Source: a virus (taxonomy: Duplodnaviria; Heunggongvirae; Uroviricota; Caudoviricetes). From it: DNA of 9,137 nt. Below are positions 1 through 9,137 of this stretch, in pieces. Under the pieces are notes generated by a model. That model was not told the origin of the DNA. It worked only from the letters and a program-made list of their open reading frames with translations, and made no database searches. The stretch lies in the IMG/VR virus record IMGVR_UViG_2648501165_000018, positions 1 through 9,137 of that record; one strand, 5' to 3'. The position numbers and the translations under genes are program-made. Numbering within the stretch: position 1 is the stretch's first letter; each line of letters begins with the position of its first letter.

Positions 1-528
1 ATGCTAAATGTAAGGTTTGATTCAGAAAAGGCTTTAGAGGCCATTCTGTACGTCGCCTCTAAAGCACCGATCCCAGATATCTATCATGTCGGAAAAATTC
101 TTTATTATGCTGACAGGTTTCACCTTGAAAGTTTTGGACGCCTCATAACGGGCGATCACTATAACGCTATGAAGGATGGGCCTGTAGCAAGCAACACATA
201 CGATATTATAAAAATTGCTCGTGGAAATGGACGTTACATTCCTAATGGTTGTGATGTCGATTCTGTGCGAAAAGCATTTTCTGTATCAGGTATGACGATT
301 GTGCCGAGCCGTGAAGCTGATGAAGACTTTTTTAGTGACTCAGATTTAGAGTGTATTGATAAGTCTATCGCGATGCTTGGAAACATGTCCTTTGAAGCTA
401 TCAGAACCATGAGCCATGACGCGGCATGGGAACAGGCAGATCACAATGGTGAGATGTCTTTGGAATCGATAGTTGCACAGCTAAAAAATAGCAAATTAAT
501 ACTGGATTATCTGAAGAACGGATATTGA
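1..528 (+). CDS. Panacea-domain (DUF4065, SocA/PanA-like) protein, putative antitoxin or immunity component
   Basis: 175-aa ORF starting at the first base of the window, so the true start may lie upstream. The N-terminal half (…KALEAILYVASKAP…YHVGKILYYADRFHLESFGRLITGDHYNAMKDGPVASNTYDIIK) matches my recollection of the DUF4065/Panacea signature (KLxKLLYyAd…HL…g.pl…Y.A…GPV…Y). Stop TGA at 526-528 lies 5 nt before the first ATG of the next ORF. Family assignment is from memory, not from an HMM search. Confidence 0.6.
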   Translation: MLNVRFDSEKALEAILYVASKAPIPDIYHVGKILYYADRFHLESFGRLITGDHYNAMKDGPVASNTYDIIKIARGNGRYIPNGCDVDSVRKAFSVSGMTIVPSREADEDFFSDSDLECIDKSIAMLGNMSFEAIRTMSHDAAWEQADHNGEMSLESIVAQLKNSKLILDYLKNGY

Positions 529-533
529 TACTT

Positions 534-995
534 ATGCTGGGTGATTGTTTCCCTCCTGATTTTAAGGCTAATTTTAGTCGTGAAAGAGGTATATCACCCG
601 GTGATGTATTGTATCTTCATTGTGATTTTACGACCCCACCTAAAGTAAAATATATGGTGGTTGTTTGCTGTGAACCTCTTTTAGTTCTTCTAATAAATTC
701 AGATATAAATGAATTTATTAAGAGAAACAATGATCTTATGGCTTGTCAGGTCGAAATTAATAGAGAGGACCATGATTTTCTTAAATGGGACTCATTTGTT
801 AATTGCATTGAGGCTCATGCTGCTTTCGATCTTGAAATTATTAAAGAGAAAATAGCCATCCAATATGGTGACGTGCTAAAAGGTCGCATTACAGATCATT
901 GTATGAGACAAGTTCGATGTGCAGTTGAGATATCTAAAACTATGGTTAAACGGCATAAAAAACTGATACTCGCTGCTCTTCAACATTATGAATAA
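534..995 (+). CDS. hypothetical protein, candidate toxin/effector partner of the Panacea-domain gene
   Basis: ORF track gives 525..995 with a TTG start that overlaps the upstream stop; the first ATG is at 534 (MLGDCFPP…, 153 aa). No strong Shine-Dalgarno, consistent with translational coupling. Visibly AT-richer than the phage genes to its right. No catalytic motif recognised. Followed immediately by a hairpin terminator. Confidence 0.5.
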   Translation: MLGDCFPPDFKANFSRERGISPGDVLYLHCDFTTPPKVKYMVVVCCEPLLVLLINSDINEFIKRNNDLMACQVEINREDHDFLKWDSFVNCIEAHAAFDLEIIKEKIAIQYGDVLKGRITDHCMRQVRCAVEISKTMVKRHKKLILAALQHYE

Positions 996-1015
996 ACCCA
1001 TCTTTGGATGGGTTT
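994..1015. terminator. bidirectional intrinsic terminator between convergent operons
   Basis: Perfect 9-bp inverted repeat AAACCCATC (994-1002) / GATGGGTTT (1007-1015) with a TTTG loop. It is followed by TTTATTCAT on the plus strand and by an equivalent U-rich run on the minus strand. It sits between the stop of the + ORF (993-995) and the stop of the minus-strand PrtN-like ORF (1029-1031). Confidence 0.5.
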
Positions 1016-1028
1016 ATTCATATTCTAT

Positions 1029-1301
1029 TTAAATGAGCCTTTGTTTATGGGTTCTGACCCTTTCCCACTCAGCACGCCCTTCTTCTCGCCTTTTGTCTAT
1101 GTATTCCGCAAGATCCTGAATATTGATGCAACGTTTTGCTTTTTGTGATGTGCCGATGCGATATGTTGGAACGGGCAACTTACAAGCGTTTGCTTTTGCT
1201 TCTGCCGTGGCTGGACTCATGCCAAAGTACTTTTGGCTAACTGCTGAGAGTTCAATGTTAGGGGTATTGAATTCAGCCATCAGTAAAAACAAGGTGTTCA
1301 T
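1029..1301 (-). CDS. PrtN-like (pyocin-activator family) small DNA-binding protein
   Basis: The ORF track's 99-aa version begins at a GTG (1328). I prefer the ATG at 1301 (MNTLFLLMAEFNTPNIELSAVSQKYFGMSPATAEAKANACKLPVPTYRIG…), which is preceded by GGAGA 5 nt upstream; an ATG at 1313 is an alternative. Sequence resembles the PyocinActivator/PrtN family as I recall it. Last gene of the minus-strand operon. Confidence 0.5.
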   Translation of the reverse strand: MNTLFLLMAEFNTPNIELSAVSQKYFGMSPATAEAKANACKLPVPTYRIGTSQKAKRCINIQDLAEYIDKRREEGRAEWERVRTHKQRLI

Positions 1302-1337
1302 AATTTTCTCCATCAAAACCGGCTGCACCCGGGAAAA

Positions 1338-1910
1338 TCATAATTCTGTGCTGGTGGCAGGAATTAGTTTCTGCCAGATAGCGGAAACATATTTTGCCTG
1401 ATGACGGGCATCAGCCAGGGCGTTGTGCCGTTCGCCATCGAAAGGCATGTCCATTTTTGGGTCGAATCCGATGGAACGCCCAAGCGTAACGATCGTGCGT
1501 ACATCGTGGTCATTCCAGTACGCCCACGGGCAGATTTGTCCTGCTCGCTCGTAAGCTCCACGTAAAATTACGTTGTCGAAGGTGGCCCCGTTACCCCAGA
1601 CTTTTAAATATTTTGTATTGTCTGCATGCTGATTAATGAAATGGCTCAGTTCAGAGAGTGCATCGCTGATCGACAAAGTATCATCAATACAGATTGCAGC
1701 TCGTGCTTCAGAGCTCTGTTTCAACCACCACAGGATGGTATCGCCGTCAGGTGTAGCTCCTTGCCCCATAGCACTTTCCAGGCTAACAACCGTATAGAAT
1801 TCTTGTCCGATGTCTCCGGTTTCTGGAGTGAAGAACACCGCGCCAATGGAAACGATCGGTGCATCCTTATTTTTCCCCATCGTCTCAAGGTCGATCATTA
1901 AGTTATTCAT
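1338..1910 (-). CDS. DEDDh-type 3'-5' exonuclease (DnaQ-like fold)
   Basis: 190 aa. N-terminal MIDLETMG carries the Exo I D-x-E motif and HNALADARH near the C-terminus carries the Exo III H-x4-D motif. SD GGAGGTGA lies 5 nt upstream of the ATG at 1910. The start overlaps the upstream stop by 1 nt (TAATG). Confidence 0.7.
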   Translation of the reverse strand: MNNLMIDLETMGKNKDAPIVSIGAVFFTPETGDIGQEFYTVVSLESAMGQGATPDGDTILWWLKQSSEARAAICIDDTLSISDALSELSHFINQHADNTKYLKVWGNGATFDNVILRGAYERAGQICPWAYWNDHDVRTIVTLGRSIGFDPKMDMPFDGERHNALADARHQAKYVSAIWQKLIPATSTEL

Positions 1911-2221
1911 TACTTCACCTCCTGCGTTTCTTTGCTGCTGTGAATTCGCCAGTTACCGACGCCTTCCCATTCAAACTGGCGGTTACTAATTCGCGTCCAG
2001 CCCCTGCCGAAAAGCAAATCCAGATACCAGTATTTTAAAGTTCTGATAATTGCTCTTACAGTTGGTTTGCATCCAGAAGTCTTTGATGCGCAAATAAAGC
2101 ACCGAGTTATGCTCATGGCTTCTACAAAAGGCCAGATAAACCAAACCCAGATGCAAAGAGCCACGAACAACATGAGCGCGATGTTAGCCACTAAGCCAGA
2201 CCAGTACAGATAATTGCTCAT
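1910..2221 (-). CDS. hypothetical small membrane protein with Cys cluster
   Basis: 103 aa. A hydrophobic N-terminal segment (LVANIALMLFVALCIWVWFIWPFV) predicts one transmembrane helix, followed by CFICASKTSGCKP. The start at 2221 overlaps the upstream stop (ATGA-type junction). Confidence 0.5.
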   Translation of the reverse strand: MSNYLYWSGLVANIALMLFVALCIWVWFIWPFVEAMSITRCFICASKTSGCKPTVRAIIRTLKYWYLDLLFGRGWTRISNRQFEWEGVGNWRIHSSKETQEVK

Positions 2222-2601
2222 TGGTTGCCTCCACCTTGGCTCTGAAGCATGGCAGCGCGGCAGGCGTTCCAGCCATCAACATACCCAGCCATGATATATC
2301 GATTAAAACCCACCTCTTTCTGTGCGCGTGCCAGATTCATTTCCTCCGGCACGTGTACTGGCTGAGCTATATATAGCGGCTGAACATACCAACCCTTTGA
2401 TAACCAACTGTCAGCAACGTTTTTACTCCGTGTTATTGCCGGAATACCTAAGCCATTGTCTGAATGCAGCCATGCCACCGGTTCTGCTTCCAGCGATGCC
2501 AGCGTAATCCGTGCAAGTTCCATTTGTTCACCACGGGTAAGCCCGTTTTCAAGCGGATTTTTAATGAATAATTCGATACGTTCTTTGGTAATAGAATTCA
2601 T
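2218..2601 (-). CDS. hypothetical phage protein
   Basis: 127 aa. The ATG at 2601 is preceded by AAGGTG 7 nt upstream and lies 1 nt after the upstream stop (TAG C ATG). No domain recognised. Confidence 0.5.
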   Translation of the reverse strand: MNSITKERIELFIKNPLENGLTRGEQMELARITLASLEAEPVAWLHSDNGLGIPAITRSKNVADSWLSKGWYVQPLYIAQPVHVPEEMNLARAQKEVGFNRYIMAGYVDGWNACRAAMLQSQGGGNQ

Positions 2602-2602
2602 G

Positions 2603-2794
2603 CTATTTCACCTTAATCTCAACATTTCGCAGCTTTATGTCTACTGGTAGGTCTGACTTTCCTGTTAACGCTAATGCGAGATTTTCAGGAGTAATGAGAG
2701 CAGTTATTGTTTTCCCCATCGCCAGACGAATAATCATTCGTATCTCGCGATCGTCACATGCTCCCGGTCGAACAATTGAGATTTGTCCGTTCAT
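2603..2794 (-). CDS. hypothetical small phage protein (63 aa)
   Basis: ORF track gives 2603..2824 with a TTG start. The ATG at 2794 (MNGQISIVRPG…) has a strong SD AAGGAGAG 6 nt upstream and lies 1 nt after the upstream TGA, so I take 2794 as the start. Confidence 0.45.
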   Translation of the reverse strand: MNGQISIVRPGACDDREIRMIIRLAMGKTITALITPENLALALTGKSDLPVDIKLRNVEIKVK

Positions 2795-2795
2795 C

Positions 2796-3383
2796 TCACT
2801 CTCCTTTGATGCGAATGCCAGCAAGCCAGTTTCTTATGCCGATATATTCAGCGTTCCTGAAACCGCTTTTTACATATATAAATGGCAAGCGAAGATTGTG
2901 ACCGTTGGCTGCCAGGTAGTCTTTACAACCCTGTTCGGTGAAACAGCAGGTAACGAATTCATCAATATCTTTCACAGCAACGCGCCGCCATTTTTCTGGT
3001 GGTTCCCGAAAGTTTTCATGAAGTAGTTCGAGACGACGACTTTGGAGTTTATTGGCTTCATTGCCATCTTCATCAACCCAGACAATCCGGTCATAGTCAT
3101 AATCAGCATCAACAACAATTTCGCGCTTTTGATACACACAAAACATAGGGTCTGACGTTATTCGATTATCCTGTGTTCGAATATTTTCACCGATGATGCC
3201 AAACGAATCTGGCGTAGGTTTTGTCTGTAACTCTTCGATACGTTCAGCCAGCGCCGCGCACTTGGCCTCAGCTTCAGCAAATTTACGCACCAGGTACTCA
3301 GCGTTTGTTTCGTTCACTTTCAGATCTCGCGGTACACATTTCCCGCGAAGAAACCCTTCCATTTCGAAAACATTCATGCGCAT
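2796..3383 (-). CDS. hypothetical phage protein with N-terminal coiled-coil-like segment
   Basis: 195 aa from the ATG at 3383. An alternative ATG at 3377 forms an ATGA overlap with the stop of the upstream HD-domain gene. The N-terminus contains a helical, charged stretch (AEAEAKCAALAERIEELQ) and the C-terminus is acidic (DADYDYDRIVWVDEDGNE). No family recognised. Confidence 0.55.
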   Translation of the reverse strand: MRMNVFEMEGFLRGKCVPRDLKVNETNAEYLVRKFAEAEAKCAALAERIEELQTKPTPDSFGIIGENIRTQDNRITSDPMFCVYQKREIVVDADYDYDRIVWVDEDGNEANKLQSRRLELLHENFREPPEKWRRVAVKDIDEFVTCCFTEQGCKDYLAANGHNLRLPFIYVKSGFRNAEYIGIRNWLAGIRIKGE

Positions 3384-3910
3384 TTGCGTAACCCCGATAA
3401 CTCGTTAAAACGTTCCATAAACATCCCGTAGGCATGGCCTGGTGACAGTGGAATAACTTTGAACATCTCTGTCGCCGGGATACCTTCCAGTACAGGCCAG
3501 AAAGAGCCATCATCAAGCCCGAGATCGCGGCGTTCGGTTGCCAGCATAATGAGATCGGCATATTTCACAGGCGTGCTCATAACCGGGGGTAACCCGTATT
3601 TCTCACGGATTACGGCGTCTATTTTTTCTTCCATCCGTTTATAGTCAGGAAGAAGGCGTTTCAGTGGCGCGGGGATGTCCTGGCAATACGCTTCTGTTGC
3701 ATCATGCATTAACGCTTCAAAAGCAAATTCCTGTGGCACCAGCTGGCTGCAAAGCACCGCATGTTGGGCGACGCTGTAGAAGTGTGAAAGATGTCCTGCA
3801 AAGCGACAGATATTTGAAAGGGAAACCGCGATATCGTTAATCACGATGTCGTCTTTATTTATCCTGTCATAATAAAAATGCTTCCCGGAAAAAGTTTTAA
3901 TAAATGACAT
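3374..3910 (-). CDS. yfdR: HD-domain phosphohydrolase, YfdR-like (5'-deoxynucleotidase family)
   Basis: ORF track starts at a GTG (3940). The ATG at 3910 (MSFIKTFSG…) has SD GGAGAA 4-5 nt upstream and gives 178 aa. HD-domain signature residues are present (…ICRFAGH…, …LMHDATEAY…). Length and synteny with a 274-aa and a 120-aa gene match the yfdP-yfdQ-yfdR block of the E. coli CPS-53 prophage as I recall it; the symbol is assigned from recalled length, synteny and motif, not from alignment. Confidence 0.65.
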   Translation of the reverse strand: MSFIKTFSGKHFYYDRINKDDIVINDIAVSLSNICRFAGHLSHFYSVAQHAVLCSQLVPQEFAFEALMHDATEAYCQDIPAPLKRLLPDYKRMEEKIDAVIREKYGLPPVMSTPVKYADLIMLATERRDLGLDDGSFWPVLEGIPATEMFKVIPLSPGHAYGMFMERFNELSGLRKCA

Positions 3911-4003
3911 TTTGTTCTCCACGTAAATGTGTTGCACCACGCTGAATTCTGGTAAAAGGAAGCCCTCACCATCCGGTGATTATTGAGTTAATTACGTTTC
4001 CAT

Positions 4004-4025
4004 AAATGCCCCCGCAGGGGCATTT
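4004..4025 (-). other. intercistronic RNA hairpin between the yfdQ-like and yfdR-like genes
   Basis: AAATGCCCC (4004-4012) / GGGGCATTT (4017-4025) forms a 9-bp stem with a 4-nt loop, 13 nt downstream of the yfdQ-like stop. The downstream sequence on the minus strand is only moderately U-rich, so it is more likely a stability/processing hairpin or weak attenuator than a strong terminator. It lies in an unusually long (127-bp) spacer in an otherwise overlapping operon. Confidence 0.3.
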
Positions 4026-4037
4026 GCAGTAATGAAA

Positions 4038-4862
4038 TCAGGCGGTGAAAGTACCAATAAAGGTTTCTACTTTGCTGTCTTTGAATTTCTCAACAAGCAG
4101 ATCACGAAATTCGTTAGCCATTTCCTCCTGCACTGCTTCCAGCTGAATAATGCGCAGAACCAGTACAGGACGATCGCCAGTGATAATGCTGAGGCGTAAT
4201 TTAAACGGACGTTCTTTCAGGCCTTCAAACGGAACGCATTTGAATTCAAATGCCACTGGCATAATGTCTTTGGTTTTCGCTTCGACAGACTCCATCAGGG
4301 AGCGTTTGCCGCTGAAGTCATTGTCTTCAAAATCAGCGGTCTGGTTTGCTTCAATCGTGATTTTACGGACTGCCGCAGCTGCTTTTGTTGCCTGAATAGC
4401 GTCACCATTAGCATCAAAGCCCACAAGGTAGTCCGCCCAGTCTTCAATCCATTCTGCCAGTGACTTCTGGGAGTTACGCTCGCCATTAACAGACAACAGA
4501 GCAGAGAACGGTGCTGTCTTTTTCAGTTTGAGAGTGGCGGTGTTATCTGCGTGGCCTGGTTCATCAATAGTACCAAGATTAAGCACACTGACAGCACGCA
4601 TATTATCAGCATCGATAAAGCAGCGGGTGCCTTCATCTGCAAGATCTTTAGAATAACGGGTAAAGTCATCGATGCTGGCAGTGGAAAGCGCACCACGGAA
4701 ACGGAAGCGATTTAAATTAAATTTTTCCAGATCATGAATGCGGAAATTCTCAGGCAATGCCACAGCATCAGCACCAATCTTACTGATAATTTCATTAACA
4801 CCCTGAGCAGAAATAAGGGCATGGATTTGATTAATTGCAGTTGCGTCTAAGTTCTGAGACAT
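4038..4862 (-). CDS. yfdQ: YfdQ-like protein (DUF2303 family), function unknown
   Basis: 274 aa. The ATG at 4862 has SD GAGGA 6 nt upstream. Length and position between the YfdP-like and YfdR-like genes match the CPS-53 yfdP-yfdQ-yfdR arrangement. Assignment is by recollection, not alignment. Confidence 0.6.
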
Positions 4863-4927
4863 AATAAGTCCTCACTATATAAAGATATTCAGTGATGAGA
4901 TAAAAAATCAGTTTATTAAGAACGATA

Positions 4928-5290
4928 TTAACGACCTGCTGCGCGGAGTTTTCCGTCAGGTTCACCGGCAAGAGTCAGTAATTGTCCCTGGTCTTCCTGC
5001 AGAATAGTCAGACGACCACCGCGATTGACATACATCGGCGTTTCGGTGGTGTCTTCTTCGGAAATTTTCCCGCGGTTAGTCGGGCGAACATATGAGAGTT
5101 TGTGTTTGATTTTCACACGGTTCTCATCAAATGGTTCGATTTCCAGGTTGAGTGAGACCTTACCTTTGGTTTTCGTGTTCATCACACCGGAAGCGACTTC
5201 ACTGAGAACTGCGCCGATTTTGGTTTCAAATACGCCGCCGTCCAGCTCCCCGATAAATGCCTGCACATCAGTACTGCGTTCGCTAGCCAT
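4928..5290 (-). CDS. YfdP-like hypothetical phage protein (120 aa), first gene of the early-left operon
   Basis: ORF track extends to a TTG at 5476 and runs through a terminator hairpin. The ATG at 5290 (MASERSTDVQAFIGELDGG…) has SD GAGGAG 6-8 nt upstream and gives 120 aa, the length I recall for YfdP. Confidence 0.55.
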   Translation of the reverse strand: MASERSTDVQAFIGELDGGVFETKIGAVLSEVASGVMNTKTKGKVSLNLEIEPFDENRVKIKHKLSYVRPTNRGKISEEDTTETPMYVNRGGRLTILQEDQGQLLTLAGEPDGKLRAAGR

Positions 5291-5338
5291 TTTGCTGCTC
5301 CTCATCATATCGACCCTGCAAGGTCGGTTGGTTTCTCC

Positions 5339-5427
5339 ACAAAACAGAGAAGAACACCTGCGGTGGCAGCCGCCCGGATGGATTGGGTTATGAGCCCGTC
5401 GTCCGGTGATGCTCTTCTCTGTTTTGT
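5339..5427. repeat. 89-bp element bounded by perfect 15-bp inverted repeats (ACAAAACAGAGAAGA … TCTTCTCTGTTTTGT)
   Basis: Positions 5339-5353 are the exact reverse complement of 5413-5427. The 59-bp interior is GC-rich and holds further short palindromes (CCGGA…TCCGG, GCGG…CCGC). It lies in the untranslated leader just upstream of the YfdP-like RBS and directly downstream (on the minus strand) of the terminator U-tract. Confidence 0.6.
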
Positions 5428-5434
5428 AAAAAGA

Positions 5435-5473
5435 GCGGTACCAGCCGGAAGCAAGTGTACAAACTGGTACCGC
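5435..5473 (-). terminator. intrinsic terminator in the early-left leader
   Basis: 10-bp GC-rich stem GCGGTACCAG (5435-5444) / CTGGTACCGC (5464-5473) with a 19-nt loop. On the minus strand the 3' arm is followed directly by TCTTTTTAC (reverse complement of 5426-5434). Confidence 0.5.
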
Positions 5474-5904
5474 CAAAGCAGTGGCTGTTGTGGTGATCGG
5501 TGATGATCTCCGGCTTGCGGTTATTTCAGACTCTCACGGGCATTTAATTGCCCCGCCGAACAGCTCTTTTCCGCAATAGCTGCAATGTCTTTCGCGCATC
5601 AGCCTGCGCATTCACCACAACGCTGAGAGCACTTAGCCAGTTACGGCACCACACTTTGTCGCGGTTCCATAAATGCCCTCATAGTTGCACCCTGGTCTCT
5701 TCCCAGGCGTCAAACCGAATCGCCACGCTGGTTAGGCGTCTTATCAGCATCATCATTGACTTGCACATTCCGGCTACCTGGTTTGTTTGCCCGAGCAAGG
5801 AGTGGATTGTCCCCTTTAACGTCCCCAGACCGCTAACGACGCATGTGCCATACGCCGTGTTACAACCAAATTTTGTTAGTACCTTGTTTGTTGGTCTGGA
5901 AAGA

Positions 5905-5957
5905 AAGATAAAATGAAGTTGCGCATTATGCAAGTATTTTTGTTGCGAGATATGCAA
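5905..5957 (-). promoter_or_regulatory. candidate OL operators and PL-like leftward promoter
   Basis: Two copies of a 15-bp motif TTGCG-N3-TATGCAA (5919-5933 TTGCGCATTATGCAA; 5943-5957 TTGCGAGATATGCAA), centres 24 bp apart. The same motif with one mismatch occurs in the cI/cro intergenic region. On the minus strand a -35 TTGCAT (5928-5933) and a -10 TATCTT (5905-5910) are 17 bp apart and overlap the first site. Promoter assignment is by eye only. Confidence 0.35.
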
Positions 5958-5974
5958 TTTGATGGGTAATGAAA

Positions 5975-5992
5975 AGCCACCTTCGGGTGGCT
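5975..5992 (-). terminator. intrinsic terminator downstream of the cI-like repressor gene
   Basis: AGCCACC (5975-5981) / TTCG loop / GGTGGCT (5986-5992), 20 nt after the cI stop. On the minus strand it is followed by TTTCATTAC. Confidence 0.5.
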
Positions 5993-6012
5993 AATTGATG
6001 AGGAGGTAAGGG

Positions 6013-6705
6013 TTAATTGTGTCGCTTAAGGGTTTGTGACTGGCTGATTAAGACCTTTCCAAAGACCATAAACCGGTGTTCATTTTCGCTGGTAATTCCC
6101 CATTCACGATAAATCTGGTTATCAGAAATCACCAGTAGTTTGTCAGGTATCATTTGCAGTCGTTTGACATAAATTTTATCATCAAAACCAAATACATAGA
6201 TACCATCTCCATCAAACTGATTGATACTGACATCAACGAAGATGAGATCTCCTGGCTCAATGGTTGGACACATACTGTCCCCACGAACGTTGATAACTTT
6301 AATGTGATTTGCTGGCCGTCCGCCAAACATCGATACAGCATTATCAGTTCTGTATTCAATGGCATGAATCACATCAATGACATCTCCGCCCTGGATAAGG
6401 CCATTTCCCGCACTGGCACTGATATCCAGCATTTCAATACGGAATACATCCTTCACCTGCGCAATATCCTCACTAATACTGTTTTTACATACAGTATTAC
6501 TTTTGAAGTCTGAGGTAAAGAGATCAGCAATATCAACACCTAAGCTCCTGGCAATATTACTCAGGGCTTGTTCAGTGAATTGTTTCTGCTTACCTGTTTC
6601 GAGGCGCGAGATATTCGCCGCATCCACTCCTATTGCTTCAGCGAGATCGGCGATTTTCATGTTCTTCGCCTGGCGAAGTTGTCTGACTCGATTTCCTATG
6701 TTCAT
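6013..6705 (-). CDS. CI-like prophage repressor (HTH-XRE N-terminal domain + S24 LexA-like autopeptidase domain)
   Basis: 230 aa. N-terminal HTH (VRQLRQAKNMKIADLAEAIGVDAANISRLETGK). C-terminal S24 signature with the catalytic Ser in RGDSMCPTIEPGDLIFVD and the Lys in IYVKRL, plus an Ala-Gly candidate cleavage site (SASAGNG). Divergent from the Cro-like gene. The -10-like TGTAAT ends 6 nt before the ATG, suggesting a leaderless or short-leader mRNA as with lambda PRM. Confidence 0.8.
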   Translation of the reverse strand: MNIGNRVRQLRQAKNMKIADLAEAIGVDAANISRLETGKQKQFTEQALSNIARSLGVDIADLFTSDFKSNTVCKNSISEDIAQVKDVFRIEMLDISASAGNGLIQGGDVIDVIHAIEYRTDNAVSMFGGRPANHIKVINVRGDSMCPTIEPGDLIFVDVSINQFDGDGIYVFGFDDKIYVKRLQMIPDKLLVISDNQIYREWGITSENEHRFMVFGKVLISQSQTLKRHN

Positions 6706-6802
6706 GCGTTTATTACATTTCTTTATTGCGCGTTAAGCAAATCAACTTGCGCAAAATATTTGCGTGAAATAATATGCTCATCACGCAATATGTGGAGGTT
6801 AT
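6706..6802. promoter_or_regulatory. divergent immunity control region (OR-like operators, PRM-like and PR-like promoters)
   Basis: Operator-like sites: TTGCGCGTTAAGCAA (6726-6740), the palindromic TTGCGCAA (6747-6754), and the inverted repeat TTGCGTGA (6760-6767) / TCACGCAA (6781-6788). Rightward candidate promoter: -35 TTGCGC (6747-6752), 17-bp spacer, -10 TAATAT (6770-6775). Leftward candidate promoter: -35 TTGCTT (6735-6740 on minus), 17-bp spacer, -10 TGTAAT (6712-6717 on minus). SD GGAGG (6794-6798) precedes the cro-like ATG at 6803. Confidence 0.45.
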
Positions 6803-7063
6803 ATGCAATCACCATTACGGAATGTGCGTAAGGCGCACGGATTTACTTTGCAGCATGTTGCTGCGGGCGTTCAGGTCAATCCAGCGACGCTGAGTCGTAT
6901 TGAAAGACTGGAACAAATTCCATCTATCGAGCTTGCAGAACGTCTGGCCAATTTTTTTAAGGGAGAAATCAGCGAAATGCAGATTCTCTATCCTGCACGC
7001 TTTCAATCTAGTCAAAACCGGAATGAGTTAAAACCACAGGAACAGGAGGTAAGCCGTGGGTAA
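6803..7063 (+). CDS. Cro-like HTH-XRE transcriptional regulator
   Basis: 86 aa. HTH (LRNVRKAHGFTLQHVAAGVQVNPATLSRIERLE). First gene rightward of the repressor, preceded by GGAGG. Confidence 0.7.
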   Translation: MQSPLRNVRKAHGFTLQHVAAGVQVNPATLSRIERLEQIPSIELAERLANFFKGEISEMQILYPARFQSSQNRNELKPQEQEVSRG

Positions 7064-7607
7064 GCATCACTGGAAAGTGGAAAAACAGCCTGAGTGGTAC
7101 GTGAAAGCTGTCAGAAAAACTATCGCGGCGTTGCCGGGGGGTTACGCTGAAGCTGCTGAGTGGCTGGATGTAACAGAGAACGCTTTATTCAACCGCCTTC
7201 GTGCCGATGGCGATCAGTTTTTTCCGTTGGGATGGGCAATGGTTTTACAGCGTGCGGCTGGTACTCACCACATTGCGGATGCTGTCGCACAGTCTGCTGG
7301 TGGGGTGTTTGTATCACTTCCAGAAATTGAGGAAGTAGAGAACGCCGATATAAACCAGCGCCTGCTGGAAGTCATCGAACAGATCGGGAGTTACTCAAAG
7401 CAGATTCGTTCGGCAATCGAAGATGGGGTAGTGGAGCCACACGAGCAGACAGCAATTAATGATGAGTTGTATCTGTCAATTTCGAAGCTCCAGGAGCATG
7501 CAGCACTGGTCTACAAAATCTTCTGCGCTCCAGAAAAGAGTAACGCCCGCGAGTGTGCAGCTCCGGGCGTCGTGGCGTTTTGTGTCTGTGGAGAAACTAA
7601 CGCATGA
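7056..7607 (+). CDS. CII-like phage regulatory protein (186-CII/CP76-type, positional CII equivalent)
   Basis: 183 aa. GTG start at 7056 with a strong SD AGGAGGT (7044-7050) 5 nt upstream; overlaps the cro-like stop by 8 nt. Putative HTH GGYAEAAEWLDVTENALFNRLRADGDQ, followed by a …FFPLGWAMVLQRAAGTHHIADAVAQ… segment reminiscent of the phage 186 CII family as I recall it. Same position as cII in lambdoid layouts. Confidence 0.55.
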   Translation: MGKHHWKVEKQPEWYVKAVRKTIAALPGGYAEAAEWLDVTENALFNRLRADGDQFFPLGWAMVLQRAAGTHHIADAVAQSAGGVFVSLPEIEEVENADINQRLLEVIEQIGSYSKQIRSAIEDGVVEPHEQTAINDELYLSISKLQEHAALVYKIFCAPEKSNARECAAPGVVAFCVCGETNA

Positions 7608-8764
7608 ACAGTTTAACGGCAAATAACCGTTTGTCGCAACAGCTGGTGGTCAGTGTCGCTGCACACCTGTTGTTACGGCATGAATGCAGATTACCAAATC
7701 ACCTGGCTGTAAGTAACCACAGAGAACTTTACCTGACTGTGGGGGGCGAGTTGTGCAGGAACTTAACCGCTGGTTTCGTGACGGAAGAGGACTTTATGTT
7801 CATGTTATTCGTTGGGAGCCAGAAACACAGCGCGTTATCTATCTTCGCAAAGACTACCCGCATGAGTGCTTTAGTCCTTTGTGGAAATTCAGGCGTGATT
7901 TTGTTGAGTGTGAAGGACCACCAGCATATTGATTCTGCAATTCCGGGACGTTACACTGTTCAGGCACCTTATAAAGCGGGTGCCGGGATTGGCGTCCTGA
8001 AATTGTCAACGGCGATGTATGACGCGCCAGCGTCTTTTTTATCGTCCGCATTTGCTCACATCCAGATTATGGTGGGCTGGGCGGGGGCACCGAAAGGTGC
8101 GCCGGTCTCCGTTGACGCCGGTTACGCCAACCCCGTCCAGTTCACCACCAGTGAAATTGGCGTTTCCGGTGGTGGAAGTTTTTCACTGTCAACGGAGGCT
8201 GCCATCATGGCTACGATCCAAGCCCTCACTCAACCTGAAATCACCATTGACAACGGCCAGGCCGTTACCACTTCTTTGGCTGTTGCCAACTTCTTCTCCA
8301 AGCGTCACGACGATGTGCTGAAAAAGATCCGCACTCTGGATTGTTCCCCTGAGTTTTGTGCCCGCAATTTTGCGGAGACATCGATTTCGGTAAATCAACC
8401 GAACGGTGGTACACGCAAGCTCCCTTGCTATCAAATCACACGAGACGGTTTTGCGTTTCTTGCTATGGGTTTCACGGGTAAACGTGCTGCCCGGTTCAAA
8501 GAGGCATACATCAATGCCTTTAACCAGATGGAAAAACTGCTTTCAAAGCCATCCACGCTGAGCGATGCCGCAGATAACGCCAGCGTGCTTTACTCCCACC
8601 TGTCGGTAATCCACAAGGTCTGGCTGCAGCAGCTTTATCCTATGTTGGCAAAAGCTGAATCTCCGCTGGCTGTTAGCTTATATGATTATATTAATGATGC
8701 TTCGGCGCTGGCCTGCCTCATAAATTTGTCGCTGAACCCTTCAGAGGTAAGGGGGCGCAAATGA
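7604..8764 (+). CDS. Rha-domain phage regulatory protein (antirepressor-like); N-terminal extent uncertain
   Basis: The C-terminal ~185 aa (from the ATG at 8207, MATIQALTQPEITIDNGQAVTTSLAVANFFSKRHDDVLKKIRTL…ITRDGFAFLAMGFTGKRAARFKEAYINAFNQME) matches the Rha family as I recall it, and that ATG has a strong SD GGAGG 8 nt upstream. The frame is nevertheless open back to the ATG at 7604, which forms an ATGA junction with the CII-like gene; codon usage and the R/P/S-rich shadow frame argue that at least 8019-8206 is coding in this frame. The reported span is the full open frame. 8207..8764 is the conservative core. Confidence 0.5.
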   Translation: MNSLTANNRLSQQLVVSVAAHLLLRHECRLPNHLAVSNHRELYLTVGGELCRNLTAGFVTEEDFMFMLFVGSQKHSALSIFAKTTRMSALVLCGNSGVILLSVKDHQHIDSAIPGRYTVQAPYKAGAGIGVLKLSTAMYDAPASFLSSAFAHIQIMVGWAGAPKGAPVSVDAGYANPVQFTTSEIGVSGGGSFSLSTEAAIMATIQALTQPEITIDNGQAVTTSLAVANFFSKRHDDVLKKIRTLDCSPEFCARNFAETSISVNQPNGGTRKLPCYQITRDGFAFLAMGFTGKRAARFKEAYINAFNQMEKLLSKPSTLSDAADNASVLYSHLSVIHKVWLQQLYPMLAKAESPLAVSLYDYINDASALACLINLSLNPSEVRGRK

Positions 8765-8985
8765 TCCGGAATATTTTCAAACGGTTTACCAATCAGACTT
8801 TCCGTTGTCCTCGTCCGGGTCAGTGGTACACCACACCTGCAGGGCATGTTCTACGTGTTAGCCTGGTTGACCGTGAATGTCAGAAGGTGATTTGTGAACC
8901 GCTTGGCCGTAATTACCGCGTCAGTATGCCGCTTATAGCCTTTCGCTCCGGAAAAAACATGAAGCATCTCGGAGGTGCAGCATGA
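8761..8985 (+). CDS. hypothetical small phage protein (74 aa)
   Basis: ATGA overlap with the Rha ORF stop at 8761-8764 and a second ATGA overlap with the next gene's start at 8982-8985. Basic, Cys-containing (RCPRPGQW…RECQKVICEP). No domain recognised. Confidence 0.45.
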   Translation: MIRNIFKRFTNQTFRCPRPGQWYTTPAGHVLRVSLVDRECQKVICEPLGRNYRVSMPLIAFRSGKNMKHLGGAA

Positions 8986-9137
8986 GTATGGAGCTGATGG
9001 TTAAAGCGATGAAAATTCGAGTGGGTAATCCATTGCGAAAACTGGTTCTGATCAAGCTGGCTGATAATGCCAGCGATCAGGGTGAGTGCTGGCCCAGCTA
9101 CCAGCATATTGAACCGCCCCGGGTTTCCTGGAGAGTA
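8982..9137 (+). CDS. phage replication-initiation-type protein, N-terminal HTH fragment (truncated by window end)
   Basis: ATG at 8982 with SD GGAGG (8971-8975) 6 nt upstream. MSMELMVKAMKIRVGNPLRKLVLIKLADNASDQGECWPSYQHI… resembles the N-terminal winged-HTH of phage replication proteins (the …KLVLLALADHANDDGECFPS… pattern). Runs off the end of the window. Confidence 0.5.
   Translation, partial: MSMELMVKAMKIRVGNPLRKLVLIKLADNASDQGECWPSYQHIEPPRVSWRV

Follow-up and report, generated by a model that had tools for sequence, protein, structure and literature searches.

We analysed a window of 9137 nucleotides (nt), positions 1 to 9137 of the IMG/VR record IMGVR_UViG_2648501165_000018, which spans the immunity region and early region of a lambdoid phage of the SfV/mEp460 type, and focused on the 722 bases between the stop codon of cI and the ATG of a YfdP-like gene, where only mechanical open reading frames (ORFs) are present. 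Over 5200–6100, identity reaches 99% with Escherichia phage PhiR63_1 and 98% with mEp460. Sequence comparison shows the stretch between cI and the YfdP-like gene to be a non-coding leader built as a mosaic of mobile, self-contained structured-RNA modules, two of which, M2 and T1, have already been published together as the small RNA (sRNA) sRNA-17. On the minus strand the order is the cI terminator, two operators with an inferred promoter PL, M1, P0, M2, T1, M3 and the YfdP-like start; the individual features, with the neighbouring genes last, are as follows:

5975–5992, minus strand: cI terminator hairpin AGCCACCCGAAGGTGGCT followed by TTTT, found by a terminator scan 20 nt past the cI stop
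5943–5957 and 5919–5933: operator OL, two exact TTGCN7GCAA palindromes 24 bp apart
5897–5933, minus strand: inferred promoter PL, with −35 TTGCAT (5933–5928), a 17-nt spacer, −10 TATCTT (5910–5905) and a start at ~5897
5685–5861, minus strand: M1 structured RNA domain, from an alignment of 40 copies, pair counts and an nhmmer profile
5617–5684, minus strand: P0 helix, (CAAC)UAUGAGGGCAUU / AGUGCUCUCAGC(GUUG), with a variable apical insert; fold −31.2 kcal/mol, z = −3.0
5487–5621, minus strand: M2 cloverleaf-like core, comprising P1, GAAU, hairpin 1, an insert and hairpin 2
5429–5622, minus strand: sRNA-17 orthologue (M2 plus T1), to which the primers of PMC7719688 map with 0–1 mismatches
5427–5474, minus strand: T1 intrinsic terminator, a 13-bp stem GGCGGUACCAGUU/GGCUGGUACCGC (5474–5434) followed by UCUUUUU
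5334–5432, minus strand: M3, an imperfect hairpin of ~25 bp that begins at the T1 U tract; −59.5 kcal/mol, z = −6.2
5289–5326, minus strand: small hairpin CGACCUUGCAGGGUCG (5326–5311), Shine-Dalgarno GAGGAG and the YfdP-like ATG at 5291
4928–5291, minus strand: YfdP-like coding sequence with its ATG at 5291, as annotated in mEp460 and PhiR63_1
Left of the leader: a YfdQ/DUF2303 gene and a YfbR-like nucleotidase gene
6013–6705, minus strand: cI, with helix-turn-helix and S24 peptidase
6803–7063: cro
7056–7607: CII-like gene
From ~8168: Rha-type gene

None of the ORFs in 5291–6012 has a Pfam match above the curated cut-off, and three published annotations of near-identical phages conflict in the strand and frame of the ORFs placed there. 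Among copies in other phages, the M1 segment (5861–5685) and the variable inserts of P0 and M2 carry compensatory changes together with insertions and deletions whose lengths are not multiples of three, which rules out conserved coding in these parts. A preliminary description of this DNA, made from the sequence alone, had seen neither a convincing protein gene nor an N-like gene here, and it is borne out on both counts: an N-like, arginine-rich ORF is present neither in 5291–6012 nor elsewhere in the window. A BLAST search with 5292–5900 recovered separate segments matching the intergenic DNA of unrelated phages, namely P1 (trnI–ban), epsilon15-like Uetakeviruses (terminase–portal), SfV and ST64B, with further matches in T1-like and other Klebsiella and E. 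coli phages, some with genomes of 157–160 kb. The region is far from chance sequence, as seen in the fold of M3 (see the list above) and in the match of the M1 sequence profile, which finds a single copy in the window (nhmmer, E = 3.6e-34).

The OL palindromes share their form with an OR site at 6726–6740, of which a one-mismatch copy lies at 6774–6788. The −35 and −10 elements of PL overlap both OL palindromes, and the same −35/−10/operator layout stands upstream of M1 in contigs L373, L413 and L427. Since only 8 of 12 positions match the consensus, PL fell below the threshold of the promoter scan. From this arrangement we infer an OL/PL region with a start near 5897; the promoter that the preliminary description had proposed near 5900 is thus plausible, if putative.

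M1 begins ~40 nt past the inferred PL start and ends 210 nt ahead of T1. Copies were sampled by two exact-word scans of IMG/VR, each returning at least 120 loci, and clustering reduced these to 76 representative types; in total, more than 250 copies are known to us. From an alignment of 40 diverse copies (A3), we derived a manual structure of 28 pairs: a 9-bp hairpin H1 (5857–5837), a long-range helix H2 enclosing variable hairpins, an invariant 19-nt single strand GGUAGCCGGAAUGUGCAAG (5778–5760), a variable hairpin H3, a 4-bp helix H4 whose loop pairs downstream in a CACC/GGUG-type pseudoknot, and a hairpin H5 (CCUGG/CCAGG). Across the 40 copies, 97.5% of the cells are paired; none of 500 shuffles attained the observed values, and slid controls were 28–53% paired. 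The comparative alignment that the preliminary description had recommended for compensatory changes thus succeeded, with both sides changed in 13 of the 28 pairs. A covariance-model search, also recommended there, came back empty for both M1 and canonical M2: at gathering and permissive thresholds, over the window and at least 30 related loci, Rfam contains no family for either, and the sole leads were STnc100 matches of the SfV/ST64B variant that stayed below threshold. Folded as a single sequence, the M1 region has a minimum free energy (MFE) that does not stand out from chance (z = −1.5), and the profile has no match in the fetched stretches of HK022, P22, SfV, ST64B and IME207. A default RNAalifold fold, which pairs invariant GGCACAU/AUGUGC without covariation, was discarded in favour of the covariation-supported manual structure. 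On this comparative evidence, M1 is a structured RNA, unannotated and absent from Rfam 15. Full-text literature searches with the invariant strings (as DNA and RNA, both strands) returned no paper, and keyword searches on tRNA-like phage motifs and antiterminator RNAs returned nothing relevant; neither Rfam 15 nor the searchable literature describes M1, how widely the M2 core is spread, or the recurrent layout of leader, terminator and cargo.

Downstream of M1, the P0 helix is kept across copies as GAUGAGRGCAUU / AGUGCUCUCAGC through compensatory changes (for example, AAGAGC/GCUCUU), and its GUUG end overlaps the 5′ strand of P1, the stem that closes M2. GUUG (5617–5621) has two possible partners: CAAC (5681–5684), in a pairing that lengthens P0 and is the one seen in the MFE fold, and ACCACAAC (5487–5494), in the pairing that makes P1; the two pairings are mutually exclusive and could act as a co-transcriptional switch. 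A boxA-like core also lies in the 3′ strand of P0 (~5626–5633, minus strand), reading UGCUCUCA here and UGCUCUUU or UGCUCUUA elsewhere.

In the window, P1 is formed by GUUGUGGU (5621–5614) and ACCACAAC (5494–5487). It encloses GAAU and hairpin 1, GCGCA-GGCUGA-UGCGC (5613–5594), an insert of 79 nt (26–181 nt across copies) and hairpin 2 (5514–5495; consensus GCCGG-AGAUCAGCA-CCGGC), after which one C leads into the 3′ strand of P1. When only the hairpin-2 loop motif was required and the register was fixed, the inner six pairs of P1 were 89–95% paired, against 51.5% in the partner-shuffled control, with all four Watson–Crick pair types at five of the six inner positions and 57 distinct 5′ strands. 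The hairpin stems covary, with variants of the hairpin-1 stem such as GCACA/UGUGC and GGCGG/CCGCC, while the hairpin-1 loop GGCUGA stays constant, and the two M2 loops are complementary (GCUGA/UCAGC). As modelled, this four-helix layout resembles a tRNA cloverleaf with a loop–loop ‘elbow’, and also the C4/CI RNAs.

The exact 20-mer of GAAU and hairpin 1 occurs in at least 120 viral contigs and at least 120 bacterial species genomes, including those of Rhizobium, Massilia, Comamonas, Burkholderia, Pseudomonas, Xanthomonas, Dyella, Halomonas and enterobacteria. The hosts of phages and prophages with the M2 core span the Alpha-, Beta- and Gammaproteobacteria. Downstream of 173 distinct M2 instances we found a terminator in 38, a ribosome-binding site and ORF in 51, and tRNAs in 12; the ORFs include N-like arginine-rich, YfdP-like (one in a Martelella genome) and RecT-like ones. 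An M2 followed by a YfdP-like gene is also present in contig L210, where a terminator was called, and in the Martelella genome (L295), where none was. M2 is therefore a frequent element of PL leaders. The comparison with a tRNA is in keeping with the tRNA genes that often follow M2, with the genuine tRNA-Arg that fills the M2 slot in Uetakevirus cassettes, and with the T-arm-like hairpins or full tRNA within the variable parts of M2.

Several further observations concern M2-bearing or related leaders. In P22 (L369, 2160–2320, minus strand), the stretch from nutL to gene 24 has a long closing stem, UUUGGxxUGGxx / xxCCAxxxCCAAAG, whose inner domain differs from M2; the same UUUGGxxUGGxx closing stem occurs in an M2-bearing P22-like contig (L144, 8560–8790, plus strand), and the M2 core thus behaves as an exchangeable cartridge carried on a leader stem that is itself conserved. 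The M2 insert of L137 (minus strand of the locus; 20-mer at 3821–3840) contains a sequence that has the hammerhead ribozyme core (CUGAUGAGGCCAUAAGGCCGAAAC) with flanks CUACGC/GCGUAGUC, and that of L232 (20-mer at ~7022–7041, plus strand) an apparent complete tRNA. Enterobacter phage Tyrion (L128) carries an int-alpA RNA in its moron island (536–600, minus strand; 44 bits, above threshold). Weak matches to permuted transfer-messenger RNA (tmRNA; 26 bits) lie ~200 nt upstream of M2 in L164 (958–1012) and L186 (1003–1110), and probably reflect T-arm-like hairpins in the tips of P0.

T1 is a GC-rich hairpin followed by a U tract, as expected of an intrinsic (Rho-independent) terminator, and coincides with the 3′ end of sRNA-17 mapped by rapid amplification of cDNA ends (RACE). 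It folds at −21.2 kcal/mol (z = −3.6), with 2 of 200 shuffles folding equally well, and lies where the preliminary description had placed an intrinsic terminator (5435–5473); the consensus scan missed it because its loop exceeds the 8-nt limit of the scan. The same stem with a different loop is present in Tyrion and SfV; in ST64B another terminator takes this place. The flanks of M3, UUUUACA.. / ..UUGUGGAGAA, likewise enclose different stem sequences in ST64B, L371, L373 and L413. The order of M2-like RNA, terminator, M3 and yfdP is thus kept in SfV, ST64B and other contigs despite differing terminator and M3 sequences, and this conservation of a terminator at one position argues that termination there is functional. 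A promoter scan of the minus strand over 5430–5291 recovered no sigma-70-like site. Pairing of the 3′ part of M2 with the 5′ strand of T1 as an antiterminator was drawn by eye in the window, SfV, ST64B and L373, and was too inconsistent among them to claim. The tip of M3, GGGCUCAUAACCC, has the same form as the anticodon arm of tRNA-Met/Ile2 (CAU), with GGGCUCAUUACCC at this place in ST64B; it could be a tRNA relic or mimic. In SfV (L487), an unannotated ORF starting ATGACTTTTGATGAAAAAGAAC (~2035–2260, plus strand) converges on the leader, where the record marks only a ‘putative terminator’.

The M2–T1 part of the leader corresponds to sRNA-17, a 193-nt RNA detected by RACE and Northern blot in E. 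coli K1 RS218, in a near-identical mEp460-like prophage (PMC7719688). Both full-length primers map to the window without mismatch (5429–5460 and 5590–5622), and the Northern probe maps with one mismatch (5511–5560) in the orientation that detects minus-strand RNA; the deletion and promoter primers of that study map to the same locus with at most one mismatch. This agreement with the RACE-defined RNA and its flanks fixes the identity of the two RNAs, ends included. The 5′ end lies one base outside P1, which fits processing of a longer PL transcript. The published study treats sRNA-17 as an independent, ArcA-regulated, trans-acting sRNA with its own promoter (PMC7719688); the supposed promoter fragment corresponds to 5622–5871, in what is here the M1 domain. 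The PL-leader context, the structure, the family relationships and the wide distribution described here are not part of that account. In RS218, a cassette replacing the equivalent of 5479–5596 was accompanied by a rise in reads from 0.5 to 47 for yfdP and from 0 to 8.5 for yfdR (PMC7719688, Table 1), genes that relate to 4928–5291 and 3374–3940 of the window. The authors read this rise as trans regulation (PMC7719688), whereas the data are consistent with a cis or read-through effect, which is the simpler explanation.

sRNA-17 and the widespread M2 core also share a layout with STnc100 (RF02076): an xxUGGUG closing stem, AAU, a hairpin, variable hairpins, a CCGG(G) hairpin, a C, ACCAxx, a linker and a terminator. 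Inspection of the model alignment, whose consensus 3′ part reads CCGGG-AGGCA-CCCGG-C-ACCAxx followed by a terminator, shows this architecture in the window at 5621–5427. STnc100 is prophage-borne, as is M2, and PasD is a relative of STnc100. The covariance model, with a gathering threshold of 47 bits, has no match in 5200–6100 at E values up to 10; SfV and ST64B score 39.5 and 35.1 bits in the exact M2 slot, both below threshold. Unlike STnc100, M2 has invariant hairpins (GCGCA-GGCUGA-UGCGC and GCCGG-AGAUCAGCA-CCGGC) that depart from the Rfam consensus, and its core extends far beyond Gammaproteobacteria. The role of STnc100 has been described as unclear (PMC12370729). In the ST64B prophage, the non-coding RNA STnc1310 and two genes ‘downstream of CI’ are co-induced by peroxide, nitric oxide and DNA-damaging stress (PMC7067206); we place this RNA and these genes by their description only, not by coordinates.

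The explanation that we favour, with moderate confidence, is that the region is the untranslated PL leader of an SfV/mEp460-type phage, which yields a terminated and processed sRNA of STnc100-like layout and in which T1 attenuates the early-left genes. Derepression would allow transcription from ~5897 through M1, P0 and M2, and much of it would halt at T1. From the resulting primary RNA of ~470 nt, a cut at 5622, where the closing stem of M2 has its base, would then release the stable ~193-nt sRNA-17 (M2 plus T1). T1 would therefore have two functions, forming the 3′ terminus of sRNA-17 and attenuating transcription into yfdP–yfdQ–yfdR and further genes, whose expression would depend on read-through only; from T1 to the YfdP-like ATG, we see no promoter of their own. 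Both the attenuator role of T1 and processing at 5622, in place of a separate promoter, are putative. A cis-acting leader RNA may aid read-through, and M1 is, more speculatively, a candidate for it, since elsewhere it heads units in which terminators abut promoterless cargo. The preliminary description, which had proposed a regulatory RNA, a terminated RNA or an antitermination site, is therefore partly right: the leader encodes conserved structured RNA (M1 with its covariation, and the folds of M2 and M3), the foreseen terminated RNA of roughly 470 nt corresponds to the distance from ~5897 to T1, and a 193-nt RNA ending at T1 was detected in the near-identical prophage (PMC7719688).

A number of points weigh against this explanation or parts of it. 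The 5′ end mapped in the published study could be a primary one, since its authors assumed a promoter within 5623–5873, and the expression evidence for sRNA-17 is thin, with single-digit RNA-seq read counts (PMC7719688). SfV, ST64B and IME207 lack M1, so M1 is not a general requirement for passing T1, and the first two nevertheless keep an M2-like RNA, a terminator at the T1 position, M3 and yfdP; in phage P1, M1 stands directly ahead of ban with no terminator between. Kissing of the two invariant M2 loops has no covariation support, loop 1 being without variation. The M2 copy of the window may itself be slightly impaired, because two substitutions in its hairpin 2, CAGCA to CAUCA and CCGGU to CCGAU, are disruptive and break one stem pair and one loop–loop pair; they are present in 2 of 42 window-type, otherwise near-identical copies, the other carrier being L126. 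Finally, in P22-like contigs M2 lies between a canonical nutL and an N gene, and its presence beside both makes it unlikely to be a substitute for N.

Among the alternatives, the one that survives best, which we consider possible though doubtful, is a plain sRNA locus with a leaky terminator, in which M1 and M2 would be trans-acting stable RNAs (tRNA-like decoys or binders of a conserved host or defence factor), put at the start of the operon simply so as to be made early, and the downstream genes would be reached by passive, partial read-through with no dedicated antitermination. M2 plus terminator is a stand-alone unit in many phages (the 38 of 173 instances mentioned above), M2 and tRNA-Arg are interchangeable in the same Uetakevirus cassette slot, and M2 often precedes tRNA genes, with tRNA-like elements in its variable parts. 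That the exact 20-mer is retained across proteobacterial classes points to a trans partner that is conserved as well. The two modules are, moreover, mostly independent, with M1 in only 7 of 235 M2-fetched loci, and SfV and ST64B do without M1. What a trans-acting role leaves unexplained is the presence, in M1 cassettes, of one or two strong terminators right before the starts of promoterless cargo.

These cassettes bear on a bolder possibility, that M1 mediates antitermination. In 59 of the 66 M1 loci whose first ORF was called, M1 is separated from this ORF by one or more terminator-like hairpins, and in 35 by two or more. In 22 loci the ATG follows the last terminator stem by only 16–24 nt, too short a distance to accommodate a promoter. 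Of the 66 units, 26 (39%) have such a hairpin ending at most 60 nt from the ATG, against 9.3% of other ORFs in the same loci. Strong promoters (at least 9 of 12 consensus positions) are also enriched in the 75 nt preceding M1, where 12 of 73 loci have one, compared with 1.3% of control windows. By analogy, this architecture is suggestive of the logic of ‘privileged’ transcription by put. The put RNA acts in cis on RNA polymerase, through the β′ zinc-binding domain, and suppresses termination without protein factors. HK022 and the present phage are both N-less lambdoid phages with an RNA element, put or M1, in the PL leader; M1 comes after the promoter in the nascent early transcript and before the terminators to be passed, as put does, and it is often promoter-proximal, like putL (PMC9378689). 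The two differ in size and fold, put having ~70 nt and two stem-loops, M1 ~175 nt, five helices and a pseudoknot. The nun–cI region of HK022 has no match to M1 or M2 blocks within four mismatches and only chance hits by blastn, and HK022 has no M1 profile match at E values up to 1. Antitermination by M1 is plausible but, on balance, rather unlikely. We would give about the same weight to its full form, in which M1 represents a new class of cis-acting processive antiterminator RNA (functionally analogous to put and EAR but folded in an unrelated way) and the M2 core a tRNA-shaped processing or punctuation signal, or decoy. If this were true, M1 would confer a privileged status on transcripts that start at its own promoter, so that RNA polymerase passes the one or two terminators insulating promoterless cargo (morons in epsilon15-like phages, the early-left operon here), and the M2 module would be common to phages of at least three proteobacterial classes.

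Antitermination that depends on a protein is improbable. It would have an N-, Q- or NusG-like factor, encoded elsewhere in the phage, load onto RNA polymerase at a site in this leader, perhaps the boxA-like UGCUCUCA (~5633–5626) together with hairpin 1, and take it past T1. Hairpin 1, with its 5-bp GC stem and 6-nt loop, is similar in size to the P22 boxB GCGCUGACAAAGCGC, and M2 does occur in N leaders of P22-like phages. GCUCUU(U/A) is also recurrent in the 3′ strands of P0, at most 32 nt from M2 in 33 of the 250 M2 contexts, whereas 0.4% of control windows have it. Against this, the window has no N-like arginine-rich ORF, the boxA-like bases are paired inside P0, and contigs with an N gene have a separate canonical nutL upstream of M2. 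Still less probable is a promoter of the yfdP operon downstream of, or overlapping, T1, which would then merely end a separate RNA gene without coupling to the operon. The 8/12 match of PL itself illustrates that weak promoters can escape the scan; yet the minus strand of 5430–5291, devoid of sigma-70-like sites, is filled by the 99-nt M3 and a second hairpin, the 22 related cassettes leave just 16–24 nt before the ATG, and yfdP and yfdR are silent in the RS218 lysogen. That the region encodes small proteins, such as the 36-aa ORF at 5544–5654 or the 92-aa ORF at 5679–5957, some of which related records annotate as hypothetical proteins, can practically be dismissed, given the absence of Pfam matches above the curated cut-off, the conflicting annotations, the frame-breaking indels and paired compensatory substitutions across both ORF positions in homologous copies, and the conservation of the M2 core at the nucleotide level around inserts of 26–181 nt.

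Other known RNAs offer partial parallels. The P1/P7 C4 and P4 CI antisense RNAs (Rfam C4, clan CL00128) are likewise small structured RNAs from the leader of their own operon, with a closing stem around GCGC- and GCCGG- hairpins, and C4 is processed by RNase P; in M2, however, the loops are invariant across phages and are not matched to a target in the same operon. The C4 model RF01695 has no match in 5200–6100, its sole match in the window being at 8065–8152 (plus strand). The lambda PR′–6S RNA–tR′ late leader and the lambda/P22 N leader resemble the present arrangement in combining a promoter, a terminated untranslated leader of a few hundred nt and genes reached by read-through; these systems use the proteins Q or N, for which no gene or site was identified in the window. 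A tRNA or tmRNA was rejected, with no genes called by ARAGORN in the window and no Rfam tRNA or tmRNA match in the region, M2 being a cloverleaf in layout only. The Pas sRNAs were also set aside, as they are largely of pathogenic Escherichia and Shigella, mature PasA has 84 nt, and the neighbours of PasA, PasC and PasD belong to the late region (Q, lysis) (bioRxiv 2026).

Elsewhere in the window, a SocA/Panacea-domain antitoxin-like gene (1–528, plus strand; E = 2e-20) overlaps by 4 nt a 156-aa ORF (525–995) lacking a Pfam match, and the two form a candidate PanA-type toxin–antitoxin pair (1–995, plus strand) that closes off the early-left region at its distal end and runs opposite to its genes. 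On the PR side, an isrK-like RNA (7964–8040, plus strand; 62 bits) with its own terminator adjoins the C4 antisense RNA (8065–8152; 81 bits). Both lie inside a 386-aa ORF (7604–8764) that related records annotate as a single antirepressor/Rha protein, although the Rha domain begins only 3′ of them, in an ORF from ~8168. This module (7964–8152) resembles the RNA-controlled antirepressors of the P1 c4–ant or Gifsy isrK type.

To our knowledge, how the early-left genes are expressed in N-less phages of the SfV/mEp460/ST64B group is not understood, and we know of only put, EAR and conAn as cases of antitermination by RNA alone. M1 offers a concrete candidate, combining a covariation-supported structure with a recurring arrangement of promoter, M1, terminators and cargo. 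Rfam models of M1 and of the M2 core would improve the annotation of phages and prophages, in which these segments are now often called hypothetical proteins. The ‘virulence sRNA’ sRNA-17 is recast as a module of a phage early leader and as part of a widely distributed STnc100-like motif, and, because it is such a module, its reported deletion phenotypes, such as the up-regulation of yfdP and yfdR, may be cis effects.

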